This document shows positions 5,047-11,193 of a stretch of 20,471 nt of DNA, piece after piece. How positions within the stretch are numbered: the first letter of the stretch is position 1; each line of letters begins with the position of its first letter. Origin of the DNA: Methanobacteriota archaeon (GTDB lineage Archaea; JAADCQ01; Methanopyri; Methanopyrales; Methanopyraceae); contig JAMOPY010000024.1 of NCBI GenBank assembly GCA_027064305.1, positions 1 to 20,471 on the forward strand, read 5' to 3'. The position numbers were made by a program, and so were the translations under genes. The notes below the pieces were generated by a model that ran no database searches, was not told where the DNA came from, and worked only from the letters and a program-made list of their open reading frames with translations.

Positions 5047-5769
5047 GTGGAGATCCCGCACCTGCACGTGGAACCCCTGAGGCTCGCCGCCTCCGTCGTT
5101 ATAGCGTTGATCCTGATCAAGATCGCCTCCCGCGTCGCCCGCGCCGCCCGAGACCGGCTGGAGCGGGAGGGGCTCCCCGACATAGCCTGGTGGGTCGAGA
5201 AAACACTCCTGTACGGCACCTACGCGCTCGCGCTGACGGTCGTGCTGGGCGCCCTCGGGGTCAGCCTCCTGGGCCTCCTCACCGGCCTCGGGCTGGCCGG
5301 GGCCGGCGCCGCCCTCGCCGCACGGACCCTGATCGCCAACCTCCTCGCCGGCCTCTACCTGGCCGTGGAGCGCCCCTTCGAGGTGGGCGACCGCATCCGG
5401 GTGGGCGAGTACCAGGGAGAGGTCGTGGACATCCGCATCCGCTGCACCGTGCTCCGCCACCGGGGCCGCGAGTACCTCATCCCCAACGCCCTCCTCATCC
5501 AGAAGACGGTCGAGCTCCTAAAGGGTGAGCACGAGGTGGACCTGCGCGTCCGCGTCCCGGGCCCCGCGACCGAGATCCGGCGCCGGATCGACCGGCTGGA
5601 GCGGGAATTAAAAAAGGCCGGCGCGAGGCACCTGAGCCTGACCCTCGAGCACCTGGAGCCCGGGGAGGCCCGGCTGCGGATCCGCTCCCTCGGACTCCCC
5701 CGGGACCGGGTCCAGGAGATCGTGGACCGCGTGCTGCTCGTGAAGAGGCCTGGCGGGACGGACCGCTGA
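5047..5769 (+). CDS. mscS: Small-conductance mechanosensitive channel family protein
   Basis: Three TM helices, Gly/Ala-rich TM3, NLLAGLYL...RPFEVGDRIRVGEYQGEVVDI...IPN signature. Confidence 0.88.
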   Translation: MEIPHLHVEPLRLAASVVIALILIKIASRVARAARDRLEREGLPDIAWWVEKTLLYGTYALALTVVLGALGVSLLGLLTGLGLAGAGAALAARTLIANLLAGLYLAVERPFEVGDRIRVGEYQGEVVDIRIRCTVLRHRGREYLIPNALLIQKTVELLKGEHEVDLRVRVPGPATEIRRRIDRLERELKKAGARHLSLTLEHLEPGEARLRIRSLGLPRDRVQEIVDRVLLVKRPGGTDR

Positions 5770-5802
5770 GGGATGACGATCACGGGAGCCGGGAGCGGAC
5801 CC
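5740..5802 (+). ncRNA. Possible box C/D sRNA or K-turn element overlapping the mscS stop
   Basis: GUGAAGA 5740-5746, CUGA 5766-5769, AUGACGA 5773-5779, CGGA 5796-5799. Spacers (19 and 16 nt) are longer than canonical and no target was recognised. Confidence 0.35.
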
Positions 5803-5837
5803 CGCCCCCACCCTCCCGAAACCGGGGGAGGGAGAGC

Positions 5838-6746
5838 GTGGCCGGGCTCGAGGTGAACGGCGTGCCGGTCGAGGACACGTACTGCGAGGCGTTCAAGGGC
5901 CTCTACGCCCGGTTCATCGTGACCGCCGCCGACGAGCGCCCGCTGCGGGAGGCCGCCGAGAACGTCGCCGCCCTCCCCGCCACCGTGTTCGGCGAGTCCG
6001 AGGCCGGCATCGAGCGCTGGCTCGACCCGGACGAGACCCCGGACGGGCGGCCCGGATTCATCGCCCAGGTGTGGGTCGAGCACGGGAAGAAGGCCGTCGA
6101 ACGGCTCGAGCGGGAGCTGGGCAAGCGGATCCGACAGGGCGTCCTCGTCCGCCCCACCACCCGCGTCTTCGACGCCTGCGAGAACCCACGGGGGCACATC
6201 GACACCGAGCGACCCATCGGCCGCTGCGGCGACGGGTACGAGTACACCGACGTCCGGTTCGGCCGCGAGGTCGTCAACATCCCCATCATGATGGGAGAGT
6301 TCCAGATCGAACGGCGCCTGGGCTACGGCGAGGGGGTCGCCGGCGGCCTCGTCTGGCTCCTCTGCGAGGACACCGAGGCCGCCCTCGAGGCCGGGTACCG
6401 CGCGGTCGACGCGCTCCGGGACGTAGAGGGCGTCATCACCCCCTTCAACGTCTGCGCCGCCGGCTCCAAGCCCGAGACCCTCTACCCCGACATCGGACCC
6501 ACCACCAACCACCCCTACTGCCCCACCCTCCGCGACCGGATCCTGGACTCCAAGGTCCCCGAGGGCGTGGAGGCCATCCCCGAGATCGTGATCAACGGCG
6601 TCTCCCTCGACGCGGTCAAACGAGCCATCCGCACCGCCATCGAGGCGGCGACCGAGGTCGACGGGGTCGTCAAGGTCACCGCCGGGAACTTCGGAGGCAA
6701 GCTCGGCGACTATCGAATCCCGCTGCGGGAGTGCCTGCACGAATGA
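5838..6746 (+). CDS. Formylmethanofuran:tetrahydromethanopterin formyltransferase-like protein (Ftr paralogue, EhaS-like)
   Basis: VNGVPVEDTYCEAF, ETPDGRPG, GSK...TTNHPYCPTLR, EIVING, AGNFGGKLG are Ftr-family motifs; the segment LPATVFGESEAG diverges from canonical Ftr (FGTSVIMCPAEAG). Confidence 0.88.
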   Translation: MAGLEVNGVPVEDTYCEAFKGLYARFIVTAADERPLREAAENVAALPATVFGESEAGIERWLDPDETPDGRPGFIAQVWVEHGKKAVERLERELGKRIRQGVLVRPTTRVFDACENPRGHIDTERPIGRCGDGYEYTDVRFGREVVNIPIMMGEFQIERRLGYGEGVAGGLVWLLCEDTEAALEAGYRAVDALRDVEGVITPFNVCAAGSKPETLYPDIGPTTNHPYCPTLRDRILDSKVPEGVEAIPEIVINGVSLDAVKRAIRTAIEAATEVDGVVKVTAGNFGGKLGDYRIPLRECLHE

Positions 6747-7633
6747 GCGTCGAGATCGTCGGGATCGGCGCCCTCAACGTGGACGAGCTCCTCCACCTCC
6801 CCCGCATGCCCGGCGAGGACGACTCCGTCCCCGTCGAGCGCCGCGAGCGCCGCGGCGGCGGCTCCGCCGCCAACACCATCTGCTGGCTCGCCCACCTCGG
6901 CCACCGCACCGGCTTCGTCGGCAAGGTCGGCACCGACGAACTCGCCGACCTCGCCCTCAAAGAGCTCGAGCGGTACGGCGTCGACACCTCCCGCATCGTC
7001 CGAGACGAGGGCCGCACCGGCGTCGCCTACTGCCTCATCGCCGGAAACGACCGCCGCATCCTCGTGGACCCCGGCGTCAACGACGAGCTACGACCCGAGG
7101 ACGTGGACCTGGACTACATCCTCGAGGCCGAGCTCCTCCACGCCGGCTCCTTCATCGGCCTCCGCACCGAGACCTCCCTGAAAACCCTGAAGACCGTCAT
7201 GCGCCGCGCCAGCCGCGAGCTCACCGTCACCTTCACCCCCGCCACCATGGTCCTCCGCGGCTACAGCTACCTCGAGCCCTACCTCCGCGCCGCCGACGTC
7301 GTGTTCCTGAACGAGACCGAGGCCAAGCAGCTCACCGGCAGCGTCCGGGACACCCTCAACCTGCTCTCCCGGCTCACCGACACCGTGGTCGTGACCCGGG
7401 GCCCCAACCCCACCCTCGTACGGTACGGAACCGAGACCCTCGAGGTACCGCCCGAGCGCGTCCCCGAGGAAGAGATCACCGATCCAACCGGGGCCGGCGA
7501 CGCCTTCGCCGCCGGCTTCATCGACGGGTTACTCCGCGGCGACCCGCCCGACAAGTGCTGCGAGCGCGGGCACGAAGTGGCCCAAAAATGCCTTAAAGTG
7601 ATGGGCTGTCGGCCGGCCCCCAACAACCGGTGA
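6743..7633 (+). CDS. PfkB/ribokinase-family carbohydrate or nucleoside kinase (EhaT-like)
   Basis: ATG overlaps the upstream stop (ATGA 6743-6746); GALNVD, GGGSAAN, FLNETEA, DPTGAGDAFAAGF motifs. Confidence 0.9.
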   Translation: MSVEIVGIGALNVDELLHLPRMPGEDDSVPVERRERRGGGSAANTICWLAHLGHRTGFVGKVGTDELADLALKELERYGVDTSRIVRDEGRTGVAYCLIAGNDRRILVDPGVNDELRPEDVDLDYILEAELLHAGSFIGLRTETSLKTLKTVMRRASRELTVTFTPATMVLRGYSYLEPYLRAADVVFLNETEAKQLTGSVRDTLNLLSRLTDTVVVTRGPNPTLVRYGTETLEVPPERVPEEEITDPTGAGDAFAAGFIDGLLRGDPPDKCCERGHEVAQKCLKVMGCRPAPNNR

Positions 7634-7828: not shown

Positions 7829-8074
7829 ATGGGCTGGGTTTACCGCAAGAAGGTGGTCGTGTACCATCGTTACCACCCGGGTTACCACAAGAAGGTCGTC
7901 GTGCACCATTACTATCACCATCCGCTGCTCTCATGGGGCCACCACTGGACGCACTCCTCCCACCCGGTGGTGGTCGTGCACCACGGCCACGGGGTTCCGG
8001 TGATTCTCCCGATGGTCCTGCTGGGACTACTGCTCGCCCTGCTGCTCGCCTCGGCCCGCCTTACTTCCGAATGA
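7829..8074 (+). CDS. Small His-rich protein with C-terminal membrane anchor
   Basis: Strong SD AAGGAGG before the ATG; 14 His in the first 55 residues; internal KKVVV(Y/H)H repeat; C-terminal hydrophobic helix. Confidence 0.65.
7841..7924 (+). repeat. Imperfect 42-bp tandem duplication inside the His-rich ORF
   Basis: taccgcaagaaggtggtcgtgtaccat... (7841) versus taccacaagaaggtcgtcgtgcaccat... (7883); a third degenerate copy gtggtcgtgcaccac near 7970. Confidence 0.65.
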
Positions 8075-8792
8075 ACCCCGCCAGCTTGTGCACCTGCGGG
8101 AGTATCCGGACCTCCGACCTCACCCTCCTCGCCAGCCTCCACAGCTCCCCCAGCCTGGGCTCCTTCTCACCGTCCGTGGCCGGCTGCAGGACGACGGTGT
8201 CCGGCTCCACCTCGTTCAGCCTCCGGAGGACCTCCGGGGCCCGCTCGTAGCACTCCTCGGAGTACAGCACCACCTTGACGTAGACCAGCTCACAGCGCTC
8301 CTTGACGCGCCCCAGGAACTCCAGGCATCGATCCGGAAATCCCTCCATCCGTGGACCGTGGGAGGGGAGTTTCACGTCCGCCGAGACGACGTCCACCGGC
8401 AGCTCCCCGGCGCGGTCCGGCAGGGACGCGTTCGTCTCCAGGAGCACCCGGAACCCTCGCTCGCGCAGCCCCGACGCCAGCCGCCTCAAACCGCGCAGCG
8501 GCTGCACCAGGGGCTCGCCGCCCGTGAGCGACACGGTGCGGAACGCGCCCACGCTCTCCTCCAGGCTGACCACGCTCTCGACGAGCCGCTCGGGCCGGGC
8601 CGGGCTGGCTATCGAGTCCAACCGCTCACCGTCCGGTCCGAGGACCGGGGCCTCGGTGCGCGCGCTCCTCGCGGCCGGCTCGTCGCAGTAGCGGCAGCGC
8701 AGGTTGCACCCGGAGAACCGGATGAAGGCCTGCGGCTCCCCAACCAGCGGCCCCTCTCCCTGGACCGAGGCGAAGATCTCGTACACGTTCAG
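8061..8792 (-). CDS. queE: 7-carboxy-7-deazaguanine synthase (radical SAM), archaeosine pathway
   Basis: [36 protein letters not shown]; adjacent to queD. Start uncertain (ATG 8828, CTG 8792 or GTG 8786). Confidence 0.88.
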
Positions 8793-9271
8793 TCGAGGCG
8801 GACCCGGGCCTCGGCCCCCTGCCCCCATCCCTCGTCCACCCTCACCCGCAGCTCCCGGAGGTTCTCCTCACCCTCCAACCGCTTCCGCAGCTCCCGTGCG
8901 AGGTACCGGGCCAGATCCTCGGCCGAGAGGGACTCCGCGGGGACGAACGCGACATCCTCCCGGGGGAACACGTACCGCTTGCCGTCCGGCAGCCTCACCT
9001 CCACCTCGTCGCCCCTCCGTCGGACCCGGAACCGCTCCGACTCCGTGGGTACCAGCACCCGGTGATCCAATGGCTTTATCAGCTCCCTGACGAGGCCCTT
9101 CAGCCTGTCGAAGTCGTAAACGAAGCCGTGGGGCTTCGTCCGGCTCCCTCGGAGCTCGACGGACACGTGGTACGTGTGCCCGTGCAGCCGCCCGCACTTG
9201 CCGTGCCCGGGGATCACGTGACAGGCCGAGAACCTCAGCCCCAGCTCCCGACCGTCCAGGTACACGCGCAA
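8789..9271 (-). CDS. queD: 6-carboxy-5,6,7,8-tetrahydropterin synthase / PTPS family
   Basis: FSACH...[16 protein letters not shown] and SAE motifs. Confidence 0.88.
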
Positions 9272-9283
9272 CCTCGGCTCCCC

Positions 9284-9343
9284 CGCCGATGATGATCAGC
9301 CGGAACTCCGACGCGGATGGGGAGCCCTGGCTTTACTGAGGTG
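9284..9343 (+). ncRNA. Box C/D methylation guide sRNA (candidate target 16S rRNA)
   Basis: C AUGAUGA 9289-9295; 12-nt guide; D' CCGA 9308-9311; C' GGAUGG 9315-9320; D CUGA 9336-9339; CGCC/GGUG terminal stem. D guide CCCUGGCUUU complements AAAGCCAGGG. Confidence 0.78.
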
Positions 9344-9347
9344 CGCC

Positions 9348-9410
9348 ACGGGGTCGGCGGTTAAGGCCCTCCTCACCCGTCGGCCACCGCCGTAGGTCCT
9401 CATCCCCCGC
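9348..9410 (-). ncRNA. Box C/D methylation guide sRNA (candidate target 23S rRNA)
   Basis: Minus strand reads GCGGGGG-AUGAGGA-CCUACGGCGGUGG-CCGA-CGG-GUGAGGA-GGGCCUUAACCG-CCGA-CCCCGU: four boxes, 13- and 12-nt guides, 6-bp terminal stem. Confidence 0.82.
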
Positions 9411-9423
9411 GGGGGTGGACACC

Positions 9424-11193
9424 GTGCCGGTGGTCACGATCCGTCACGACAAGCTCGTCGAGCTGCTGGGTGAGGACGTGAGCTTCGATGAACTAGCGCA
9501 CGAGCTGATCCCGATGCTGGGCAGCGACGTGGAGCGCATCGACGAGCGGGAGGGCGTGATCGAGACGGAGTTCTTCCCGAACCGCCCGGACCTGTACAGC
9601 GTCGAGGGCGTCGCCCGGGCGCTCAAAGGGTTTATGGGGCTGGAGACGGGCCTCCCGGACTACCCCGTCGGCGACGCCGGGATCCGCGCCCGCGTGGAGG
9701 AGAGCGTGCTGGACGAGCGACCCTGCCTCGCCCTCGCCGTCGTCCGCGGGGTCGAGCTGGACGAGTGGGACCTGGAGCACCTGATGGAGTTCCAGGAGCA
9801 CCTACACTGGGTCATCGGTCGAGACCGGCGCAAGGCGGCGATCGGCATCCACGACCTGGACGCCGTCGAGCCGCCCCTCCGGTACCTGGCGGTGGACCCG
9901 GACGACGAGGGCTGGGCCTTCGAACCGCTGGATCACCCGGGCGAGGAGATGACCCCGCGCGAGGTGCTCAAGCGGCACGAGAAAGGCCGGGAGTACGGGC
10001 ACCTCGTGGGCGAGCGGGTCCCGATCCTGGCGGACGAGGAGGGACCGATCTCCATGCCCCCGATCATCAACGCCGAACGCACCCGGGTCACGGAGGACAC
10101 GACCGACCTGCTGATCGACGTGACCGGCACCGGATGGCGCCCCGTCCTGGACGCCCTCCACGTGATCGCGTGCAACCTGGCCGAGCGCGGCGCCCGGATC
10201 GAGCGGGTGGAGATCGTCGGCGCGTACGAGCGCGTCACCCCGACGATGGAACTTGACGTGTGGGACGTGCCGGTGCGGGAGGCGCGGAGGCTGCTGGGGA
10301 TCGACCTCTCCGGCCGCGAGCTGGAGGAGCTCCTCGCCCGCGCCCGCCACGAGGCGGTGTTCGTCCCCGAGGGGGAGCGGGAGCTGCGGGAGTTCCCGCT
10401 GCCGGACCACCTCCACGTGGAGTCCGACTGGCGAGAGCTGCCCCCGGTCCTGTACGACGAGGACGTGGTCCGCGCCTTCGTGGGGCCCTGGAGGACCAAC
10501 ATCCTGCACGAGTGGGACCTGATCGAGGACGCGGGCATCATGTACAACTACGCGCGGTTCGAGCCCCGGCCCCCGCGGGTGTACACCGAGTCCCGACCCG
10601 ACCGGGAGCGCGAGTTCATCAACGTGGTCCGGGACGCGCTCGCCCGGCTCAAGTTCGTGGAGGTCAACTCGCTGACCCTGACCAGCCCGGAGGTGAACTA
10701 TCGCAGGATGCGGCTCGAACCCGACGGGCGGGCGGTGCGGATCGCCAACCCGATTCAGAAGGAGTACACGATCGTACGCACCTGGATCCTGCCCTCGCTG
10801 TTGCGTTTCCTCTCGGATAACCGGCACCGCCCCTACCCGCAGCGCGTGTTCGAGGTGGGCGAGGTGGCCGAGCGGGACGAGGGGGCGGAGACCGGGGCGC
10901 GCGACCGCTGGCACCTGGGCCTGGCGCTGGCCGGCCCGGGCGCGGGCTTCTCCGAGGTCAAGTCGGTGGTCGAGGCCCTGCTGCGCGAGCTCGACATCGA
11001 CGGGTGGGAGGTGCGGGAGGCCGATCACCCATCATTTATTAATGGGAGATGCGCCGAGGTTCTCGCGAGCGGACTGAAGCTGGGCTTCTTCGGCGAGATC
11101 CACCCGGAGGTGCTGGAGTCGTTCGAGCTGGAGGTGCCGGTTGCCGCCGGGGAGTTCGAGATCCCCGCCCTCAGAAGGGCGGCCGGGTGGTGA
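9424..11193 (+). CDS. pheT: Phenylalanine--tRNA ligase beta subunit (archaeal type)
   Basis: [21 protein letters not shown]...[34 protein letters not shown]. Start MPVVTI at GTG 9424 after GGGGGTGG. Confidence 0.96.
11031..11043 (+). promoter_or_regulatory. Candidate TATA box embedded in the pheT 3' end (for the ftsZ operon)
   Basis: ATCATTTATTAAT, an AT-only core in GC-rich coding sequence about 160 bp upstream of the ftsZ start. Confidence 0.45.

Follow-up and report, generated by a model that had tools for sequence, protein, structure and literature searches.

Two tail-to-tail box C/D sRNA genes between the divergent queD-like and pheT genes of a GC-rich Methanopyraceae archaeon

The window analysed here is a stretch of 20,471 nucleotides (nt) that makes up contig C24 (JAMOPY010000024.1) of an uncultured Methanopyraceae archaeon (assembly GCA_027064305.1). 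Within the window, a spacer of 152 nt with 71% GC (positions 9272-9423) separates a queD-like gene on the minus strand from pheT on the plus strand. This spacer almost certainly holds two box C/D small RNA (sRNA) genes, sRNA-A on the plus strand and sRNA-B on the minus strand, which stand tail to tail. They are probably two ordinary guide RNA genes that, lacking terminators, run on into queD-queE and pheT, with the mature RNAs being protected as ribonucleoproteins (RNPs) and trimmed. We read the layout as a consequence of compaction of the genome and of promoters being shared around an sRNA pair that stays fixed, and not as a dedicated regulatory device. The genome of the window (G000; 1.21 Mb in 50 contigs, 70% GC, estimated completeness 89%) was compared with five relatives of the same genus (G001-G005).

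Structure, conservation and targets of the two sRNA genes

Both genes were found with a strict C/D pattern. sRNA-A (predicted at 9283-9347, plus strand, boxes at 9289-9339) consists of the C box AUGAUGA (9289-9295), a D' guide of 12 nt (9296-9307), the D' box CCGA (9308-9311), a loop of 5 nt, CGCGG (9312-9316), the C' box AUGGGGA (9317-9323), a D guide of 12 nt (9324-9335) and the D box CUGA (9336-9339). sRNA-B (predicted at 9345-9408, minus strand, boxes at 9354-9403) consists, in the same order, of the C box AUGAGGA (9397-9403), a D' guide of 13 nt (9384-9396), the D' box CCGA (9380-9383), a loop of 3 nt, CGG (9379-9377), the C' box GUGAGGA (9370-9376), a D guide of 12 nt (9358-9369) and the D box CCGA (9354-9357). 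The terminal C and D boxes for a kink-turn (k-turn) are thus present in both RNAs (AUGAUGA/CUGA in sRNA-A and AUGAGGA/CCGA in sRNA-B, compared to RUGAUGA/CUGA), as are the internal D' and C' boxes around a short loop (k-loop). In the C' box of sRNA-A the fourth base is G and not A, and the relatives have AUGACGU or GUGACGA at this place. The 13-nt spacer of sRNA-B exceeds by one the published guide length of 10-12 nt (Breuer et al. 2021, PMC7994747). A short terminal stem closes the k-turn in both cases, with 4 base pairs in sRNA-A, where the stem was also seen in the minimum free energy fold, and with four G-C pairs and two more pairs beyond a bulge in sRNA-B.

The D boxes of sRNA-A and sRNA-B stand 14 nt apart (9340-9353). 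Mature ends were transferred from the offsets of the orthologues in G002 (-6 and +8 for sRNA-A, -4/-5 and +5/+9 for sRNA-B), which by analogy would place sRNA-A at about 9283-9347 and sRNA-B at about 9408/9407-9349/9345. The mature 3' ends in G000 would then lie anywhere from 1 nt apart to 3 nt overlapping. The first-pass annotation of the window had located both RNAs correctly and on the right strands, and its distance of about 4 bp between the 3' ends was close to these values.

The strict pattern matched only twice in the 20.5-kb window, both times in the spacer. In the whole 1.21 Mb assembly 33 matches were found, compared to 0, 0, 1, 0 and 0 in five simulated genomes of a first-order Markov type. 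Among the 33 strict candidates, 25 have CCGA as their D box, which makes it the usual one in this genome. No match to Rfam was obtained in the window at gathering score, as expected because C/D families are guide-specific. When Rfam was searched in E-value mode over 9200-9500, 15 of the 16 weak matches listed were C/D-box families situated on the two units, all of them under gathering score. The best were sR22 (RF01275) for sRNA-A, with 24.3 bits and an E-value of 0.004 against a gathering score of 40 bits, and sR51 (RF01305) for sRNA-B, with 20.8 bits and an E-value of 0.036 against 38 bits. By their sequences both RNAs resemble the C/D class as a whole rather than a particular curated Rfam family. 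Folding energies compared with shuffles gave no thermodynamic signal, neither for the motifs (z = 0.31 and -0.18) nor for other folds (z = 0.00 and -0.75). The genes for fibrillarin, Nop5 and L7Ae are all present in G000. The identity of both elements as C/D sRNA genes is, on all this evidence, close to certain.

The region was recovered in all five of the other genomes of the genus, with 72-96% identity (72% between G000 and G002), and at the DNA level in none of 25 sampled genomes of other families. The first-pass annotation had proposed to look for the arrangement in other genomes of the genus, and in the six-genome alignment (A1) both units stand tail to tail between queD and pheT in 6/6. 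The guides of sRNA-B are identical in all six genomes except for one base in G004. The D guide of sRNA-A is the same in five genomes and differs in G004 at the box-proximal base, leaving 11 of 12 bases invariant in the genus. All six genomes have the core CAGCCGGA in the D' guide of sRNA-A, although in G004 this guide is out of register. The D'-C' loops vary between species in both length and sequence, with the boxes retained. Compensatory changes were observed in the terminal stem of sRNA-A, where the pair -5:+4 is C-G in G000 and G-C in G002 and the pair -4:+3 is G-U, A-U or G-C. In the stem of sRNA-B the four G-C pairs are retained and the pair past the bulge changes. Resting on six sequences from three lineages, this covariation is supportive and not statistical.

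No 23S gene was found in G000, and guide targets in 23S rRNA were therefore searched in the large subunit (LSU) rRNA of the closest relative, G005, with the copies of G001, G002 and G004 compared; the 16S rRNA was that of G000 itself. Two sites in 23S rRNA pair with sRNA-B, the D' guide by 12 consecutive Watson-Crick pairs at about 1106-1118 and the D guide by 11 at about 1178-1189 (G005 numbering), and both sites were found in four of four LSU copies. Shuffled guides equalled these matches in 6 of 1000 cases (D') and 8 of 1000 cases (D). Both pairings exceed the 9-10 pairs or so that are expected of a C/D guide and include a Watson-Crick pair at the fifth position upstream of D' or D. According to the fifth-base rule, methylation is predicted at Cm1110 and Um1182, 72 nt apart. 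Both sites precede the motif GGCUUAGAAG, by about 145 and 70 nt. We take this motif to be part of the GTPase-associated region, and the targets presumably belong to domain II. Judged by these pairings, sRNA-B is a canonical dual guide for 23S rRNA. Dual guides with sites up to 100 nt apart are the common pattern in Pyrobaculum (Lui et al. 2018, PMC6009581).

For sRNA-A no rRNA match above chance was obtained. The best match of its D guide was 10 pairs including one G-U, at 16S 741-750, and was equalled by 228 of 1000 shuffled guides; the best of its D' guide was 9 pairs including one G-U, also in 16S, equalled by 203 of 1000. sRNA-A can not be called an rRNA guide, because these matches are no better than those of shuffled guides. 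The proposal that both RNAs are rRNA methylation guides thus finds support for sRNA-B, with its 12 and 11 pairs to 23S rRNA, but not for sRNA-A. Among 28 tRNA predictions (aragorn, introns allowed, several of them spurious with introns above 200 nt) no convincing match was seen for any guide. In the complete genomes G001 and G002, the sole occurrence of an 11-nt complement of the sRNA-A D guide was at the guide's own locus. Within G000, allowing at most one mismatch, complements of the sRNA-A D guide and the sRNA-B D' guide were likewise confined to their own locus, and those of the sRNA-A D' guide and the sRNA-B D guide gave scattered matches, none of which fell in the predicted tRNAs or in 16S. 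A 10-mer complement of the sRNA-A D' guide had 23 and 21 matches in GC-rich relatives, compared to 3-4 for a backwards control, and was set aside as uninformative. As far as the sequence comparisons go, sRNA-A is an orphan guide, with the same build as sRNA-B, conserved, and expressed in a relative. The conservation of its D guide may be due to an unseen target, or the queD leader on the opposite strand may constrain it.

RNA from the orthologues in G002 and promoters of the locus

RNA data were available from four size-fractionated runs (X1-X4) of one study from 2013, with a share of words of 0.62-0.73. Logan contigs of these runs were mapped on the G002 locus L006:1400-2000. The orthologue of sRNA-A was seen in all four runs as a contig of 62-63 nt, from 1634/1635 to 1695/1696, with a depth of 126-262. 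The orthologue of sRNA-B was seen as a contig of 60 nt at 1693-1752 (depth 636 and 715) or of 65 nt at 1689-1753 (depth 630), and in X3 as pieces only. In G002 there is an overlap of 4-8 nt between the mature 3' ends. Accumulation of both RNAs at roughly 60 nt, anticipated by the first-pass annotation, was thus observed in this relative.

Several contigs had permuted ends. Joints from 1752 to 1689 with one to three extra C were present in X1 and X3 and indicate a circular sRNA-B. Two loose ends, before 1634 in X4 and behind 1697 in X2, could be read as the other end of sRNA-A joined on. Together, the permuted loose ends and the joints indicate circular forms. A- and T-runs at contig ends were taken to mark the 3' end of the sequenced strand, on account of their internal consistency and not of a known protocol. 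All five T-runs before a position inside the body of sRNA-B (1690, 1693, 1695, 1724 and 1727) correspond to 3' ends on the minus strand. The single A- or T-run listed inside sRNA-A, an A-run behind 1651, fits the plus strand, and one permuted end was present at the 3' end of sRNA-A.

Shallower records crossed the boundaries of the mature RNAs. Records 1668-1714 (X1, X3) and 1667-1718 (X4), with a depth of 46-141, continue past both mature 3' ends. Records 1725-1898/2000 (X1, X2, X4) and 1695-1898 (X3), with a depth of 64-140, lead from sRNA-B through a promoter module described below into pheT, and an A-run was present behind 1898 in two runs. On the other side, an X1 record at 1589-1663 (depth 45), with a T-run before 1589, leads from inside sRNA-A into queD. 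Where L006 has no contig cover (1610-1630 in X2, all positions before 1631 in both X3 and X4), nothing follows about precursors. Being several-fold shallower than the mature RNAs, the crossing records are what would be expected of read-through precursors; this reading of them is plausible and falls short of proof, and pheT in G002 has its own promoter.

The promoter situation in the spacer was evaluated with a matrix for the BRE/TATA element (BRE, transcription factor B recognition element), built from the tRNA promoters of G000. In spite of the 70% GC of the genome, its tRNA genes have a clear BRE/TATA element with the consensus GAAAAACTTTATAAACGA, ending 23-32 nt before the tRNA. Scores of 9-22.5 were obtained for 23 of 25 tRNA upstream regions, which are self-inclusive values because the matrix was made from the same regions. 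Between 9149 and 9549 no score of 2 or more was found on either strand in G000, in agreement with the earlier remark that the spacer has no free TATA, and there was none in G005 either. The best scores within 80 nt upstream were -2.4 for sRNA-A and -3.8 for sRNA-B. A T-run terminator was also not found, as neither strand of the spacer has a run of four or more T. Over the whole genome, a site of at least 8 within 80 nt upstream was present in 3 of the 33 strict C/D candidates, and one of at least 6 in 9 of them. The value of 3/33 agrees with the roughly 20% of archaeal C/D genes that have a TATA-like motif within 50 nt upstream (Tripp et al. 2017, according to PMC7994747), most of these genes being promoter-less and their RNAs cut from longer precursors. 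For protein genes, 151 of 902 crude gene calls (17%) had a site of at least 8 within -150 to +30, compared to 3.7% of random windows.

The relatives differ in these elements. Between sRNA-B and pheT, a segment of 46 nt (L006 1753-1813; L007, same place) is present in G001 and G002 and absent from G000, G005, G003 and G004. This segment holds a two-faced TATA-like element, AGTATTAAC, with a score of 9.1 on the plus strand and 10.1 on the minus strand. The plus-strand site ends 30 nt before the start codon of pheT. The minus-strand site (1788-1771) is spaced so that transcription would start no more than a few nt from the mature 5' end of sRNA-B, and in G001 and G002 it is the sole site of at least 6 found within about 280 nt upstream of queD on that strand, the next one scoring at least 2 in G002 being at 1849 (3.2). 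In G004 a TTTAAA is located between the D boxes (L005, reverse complement 1694-1711; plus-strand score 6.0), and from its sequence it is possibly an outward-facing promoter between the two 3' ends. G000, G005 and G003 have neither the 46-nt module nor the TTTAAA, and nothing canonical was found in them. The promoter-like sites nearest to the spacer of G000 are inside coding sequence about 200 nt away on each side, in queD (antisense) and in pheT. The plus-strand site in queD, 9068-9085, has a score of 9.4 (11.2 in G003, 6.5 in G002, 1.2 in G001 and -2.9 in G004), and the site in pheT, 9618-9641, scores 10.6 on the plus strand and 6.8 on the minus strand. These sites may mean nothing, because they fall on conserved AT-rich codons (RELIKPLDH in queD), and the sequence at 9068-9085 is retained as a promoter candidate only.

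Run-on transcription and its alternatives

With no canonical promoter and no T-run terminator in the spacer, run-on into the downstream gene is the default expectation. Both RNAs would be cut from longer transcripts, as described for most archaeal C/D sRNAs. Trimming would remove the flanks, with the body of each sRNA shielded by the k-turn RNP, and some of the product would be circularised. sRNA-B, assembled with L7Ae, Nop5 and fibrillarin, would direct the 2'-O-methylation of two 23S nucleotides 72 nt apart. Each sRNA transcript would run on through the antisense of its partner, from sRNA-B into queD-queE and from sRNA-A into pheT, so that the four genes would be arranged in two transcription units that overlap. 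That two ordinary guide RNA genes run on in this manner, with RNP protection and trimming, is the account that we regard as probable. Within it, we infer both the run-on into queD and pheT and the absence of a regulatory role.

Several points weigh against this account. The RNA evidence comes from G002 and not from G000, and G002 differs from G000 by precisely the 46-nt promoter module beside pheT. The Logan contigs are strand-blind and may include DNA. When 31 letters were required on both sides of a boundary, only the X3 record 1695-1898, which crosses the 5' boundary of sRNA-B into pheT, satisfied the rule, and the other records were 1-13 letters short. The matrix can miss weak promoters, finding a site of at least 8 in only 17% of gene calls, and some promoter has to serve pheT, which is an essential gene. 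sRNA-A is without a target and its C' box AUGGGGA is off consensus at a k-loop position. To call it an orphan guide leaves unexplained why 11 of 12 bases of its D guide are invariant among genomes with 72% identity here. The earlier proposal that each sRNA is co-transcribed with the gene toward which it points is therefore sustained in part, by a spacer free of canonical promoter and T-run terminator signals, by the promoter in front of sRNA-B in G001 and G002 (the sole canonical one seen on the minus strand within about 280 nt upstream of queD) and by G002 contigs that pass the boundaries, but it is held back by contigs that are strand-blind and include a single bridging record.

The alternative that survives best is that of four independent units, each gene having its own weak, non-canonical promoter in or beside the spacer and transcripts stopping soon past each sRNA, the short antisense between leaders and trailers being inconsequential. 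We consider this rather unlikely, yet to be taken seriously. A matrix that detects only 17% of crude gene calls lets many promoters escape, the mature sRNA-A of G002 has an AAAUA run 26 nt upstream of its 5' end, the TTTAAA of G004 scores 6.0, and mature-size contigs are 2- to 10-fold deeper than the boundary-crossing records, all of which would fit independent units. Against these stand the 400 nt scanned in both G000 and G005, where neither strand reached a score of 2, and the composition of the spacer itself, with 71% GC and no T-run terminator. There is also little room, since outside the sRNA genes the spacer has no more than 11 nt (9272-9282) on one side and 15 nt (9409-9423) on the other.

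A second alternative is an interlocked regulatory unit, in which the overlapping transcripts, each with a leader holding one sense sRNA and the antisense of the other, control each other. RNP loading, sRNA excision or pairing between sense and antisense RNA would then set the level of pheT and queD-queE relative to guide output. The layout has been retained in 6/6 genomes while the promoter elements around it differ among three lineages, the spacer is without a terminator, and the G002 contigs continue beyond all four sRNA boundaries. An inverted repeat, CCCCC-GC-GGGGG (9404-9419, plus strand), joins the complement of the sRNA-B 5' stem to the Shine-Dalgarno-like run of pheT, GGGGGUGGA (9411-9419; the 3' end of 16S rRNA reads ...GGAUCACCUCCA). 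This repeat was the sole helix surviving in the centroid fold of 9340-9440 on the plus strand. It is also present in G005, G003 and G004, and it is contiguous in these four genomes and split by the 46-nt segment in G001 and G002. According to the fold, the repeat would mask the ribosome-binding site of pheT in a plus-strand RNA begun upstream, and this pairing is formed only if the leader starts upstream. An L7Ae-bound k-turn in the 5' untranslated region (UTR) has been found to lower translation in Sulfolobus acidocaldarius (Daume et al. 2017, PMC5539422). The sRNA-A D guide, finally, is perfectly complementary only to the antisense transcript of its own locus in G001 and G002.

Nevertheless, such an interlock appears improbable to us. 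Guide function, at least of sRNA-B, together with synteny explains the conservation of the pair. Two other convergent pairs in G000 are situated at ordinary 3' ends, so the tail-to-tail arrangement needs no regulatory reason. The promoter-like site of pheT itself in G001 and G002 argues that coupling is not a conserved requirement, and in reporter tests a 5'-overlapping C/D gene was simply detrimental to the downstream gene (PMC7994747). Nothing indicates the antisense or processing control that had been suggested beforehand, nor the link with archaeosine synthesis.

The boldest form of the interlock concerns the lineage of G000, G005 and G003. Here pheT and queD-queE would have no promoter of their own and would be expressed only as sRNA run-on, from starts inside the coding region of the opposite gene (e.g. 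9068-9085, plus strand). Each mRNA would arise with a full sense C/D RNP in the leader and with antisense to the other sRNA, itself very abundant, the output of the synthetase subunit and of the tRNA-modification enzymes would be set by RNP assembly, excision and polymerase collision, and the D guide of sRNA-A would be kept for pairing with the queD leader. We give this form little credence.

That the motifs are no sRNA genes in G000, and instead decayed relics, chance box-like strings or mere k-turns of mRNA leaders, is highly improbable, since the missing Rfam family at gathering score, the off-consensus C' box and orphan guides of sRNA-A and the folding energies (no better than shuffles, z = 0.31 and -0.18) are expected of C/D sRNAs, which neither fold stably nor match families built on other guides, or are outweighed by complete and correctly spaced box sets on both strands, 33 strict matches against 0-1 in simulated genomes, guides invariant over six genomes, abundant discrete and circular RNAs from the orthologues and the highly significant dual 23S target of sRNA-B.

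Flanking genes, other C/D loci and comparison with known systems

The queD-like gene (8789-9271, minus strand) belongs to the PTPS family, with 87.5 bits to Pfam PF01242 and 70.6 bits to the NCBIfam QueD model, under the cut-off of 89.25. Its end is overlapped by a queE-like radical-SAM gene (8061-8828, minus strand), for which Pfam Radical_SAM passes and the top NCBIfam matches are QueE models, all under cut-off. pheT (9424-11193, plus strand) encodes the archaeal PheRS beta subunit and scores 521 bits against a cut-off of 283 to the archaeal equivalog TIGR00471 of NCBIfam. Its start was taken at the GTG at 9424, as TIGR00471 and the Pfam B1 domain both align from residue 1. The gene name given to pheT in the first-pass annotation is thereby confirmed, whereas queD and queE are top matches under curated cut-offs, although Pfam PTPS and Radical_SAM pass. 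sRNA-A lies 12 nt from the start codon of queD and sRNA-B 16 nt from that of pheT. An open reading frame (ORF) of 81 amino acids at 7829-8074 (plus strand) overlaps the end of the queE-like gene by 14 nt. It has a third-position GC of 0.80, is rich in His, Tyr and Val, and has a hydrophobic end.

A scan for convergent 3' half-units in G000 gave 27 matches, compared to 17, 15, 22 and 27 in simulated genomes, which is not above chance, and only two further pairs held on inspection. In the pair at C36:48499-48610 the D boxes are 4 nt apart. This pair is flanked on one side by the end of a gene on the plus strand and on the other by a tRNA-Asn on the minus strand (48652-48727). The D'-C' loop is long in its plus-strand member, and its minus-strand member, found 41 nt downstream of the tRNA-Asn, may from this position form a tRNA-sRNA dicistron with it. 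In the pair at C28:35599-35682, whose D boxes are 6 nt apart, the contig end truncates the minus-strand partner, and the sRNA on the plus strand begins 6 nt after the stop codon of an ORF of 452 amino acids. Both pairs are situated where two convergent transcription units meet. On inspection of G000, the pair in C24 was the sole one seen between two divergent ORF starts.

Other C/D candidates were noted in the same genome. In the region C40:5465-5666 and 5685-7254, two of them are directly downstream, on the same strand, of the genes for fibrillarin (5685-6362) and Nop5 (6571-7254), and by this arrangement guide RNAs may be co-transcribed with the genes of their own RNP proteins. A C/D-like unit at C40:12833-12886 is located about 108 nt downstream of the 16S 3' end (12725), in the supposed rRNA spacer. 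Direct tandem C/D units, 7-8 nt apart on one strand, were observed at C12:15721-15830 and C42:16970-17053 and are likely dicistronic clusters. At C9:29389-29880, a C/D candidate on the plus strand (29830-29880) carries one of the few strong TATA-like elements (10.4) and stands divergent to an L7Ae-family gene (29389-29667, minus strand), of which there are two.

In Methanopyrus kandleri, a hyperthermophilic methanogen, 126 C/D sRNAs of 55-97 nt have been described, most of them partly circular and with highly variable abundance (Su, Tripp and Randau 2013, PMC3695527). The present RNAs are of the same class, and the size, the circular forms and the abundance range were seen for both G002 orthologues, but G000 is a different and much more GC-rich species (70% GC, 72% identity to G002). 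Convergent pairs and gene context are not discussed in the available text of that paper.

In Pyrobaculum convergent C/D pairs have been reported, Pae sR113a/sR08 being 1 bp apart and sR34/sR40 16-78 nt apart; the 1-bp pair was termed highly unusual (PMC6009581). As in those pairs, two C/D genes face each other here with almost no spacer, and both RNAs were seen in small-RNA sequencing, in our case of the relative G002. Unlike them, the pair lies between the 5' ends of divergent protein genes, close to both start codons. With this placement, the mRNA leaders must overlap the sRNA genes in antisense, whereas no Pyrobaculum C/D gene overlaps the 5' end of an ORF in antisense, as far as the available portions of that report extend. 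The Pyrobaculum arrangements also appear fluid, while the pair described here is conserved across the genus.

Among archaeal C/D genes in general, many are located within 25 nt of an ORF, and the box motifs suffice for maturation, the flanks being trimmed from longer precursors (PMC7994747). The two sRNA genes of the spacer resemble the promoter-less class of Tripp et al. in having no TATA-like element within about 50 nt upstream. The classes described comprise genes that overlap an ORF in sense, at its 3' end (25%) or its 5' end (7%), and genes in clusters or tRNA-sRNA dicistrons (PMC7994747). None of the classes given in the available text of that source is a convergent pair nested in a divergent promoter region, in which each sRNA would be part of the leader of the gene on the far side of its partner. 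By analogy with the L7Ae-bound k-turns in 5' UTRs, a sense C/D sRNA in the pheT or queD leader would put a k-turn and a k-loop upstream of the Shine-Dalgarno sequence; those regulators are single k-turns beside the Shine-Dalgarno sequence, whereas here complete guide RNAs accumulate on their own in the relative (PMC5539422). The architecture is less novel than had been claimed for it, considering that promoter-less co-transcribed genes and 1-bp convergent pairs are in print (PMC7994747, PMC6009581) and that two more pairs are present in G000. These are genes of an ordinary kind whose place is unusually cramped, and by being nested in a divergent promoter region they combine known features in a new way without amounting to a new kind of system.

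Two unannotated guide RNA genes, one of them with a firm predicted pair of 23S sites, are added for an uncultured and very GC-rich member of a hyperthermophilic genus. Over six genomes the sRNA pair has stayed fixed while the promoter elements surrounding it were replaced, with a bidirectional TATA in G001 and G002, a TTTAAA in G004 and nothing canonical in the others. The locus is therefore a compact natural test case for how promoter-less archaeal C/D sRNAs are transcribed and excised, and for what this costs their neighbours. If it is not expressed by run-on, the locus illustrates genome compaction neatly and nothing more. If an essential synthetase gene is indeed expressed by run-on through two opposed sRNA genes, this would be a new variant of sRNA-mRNA co-transcription.

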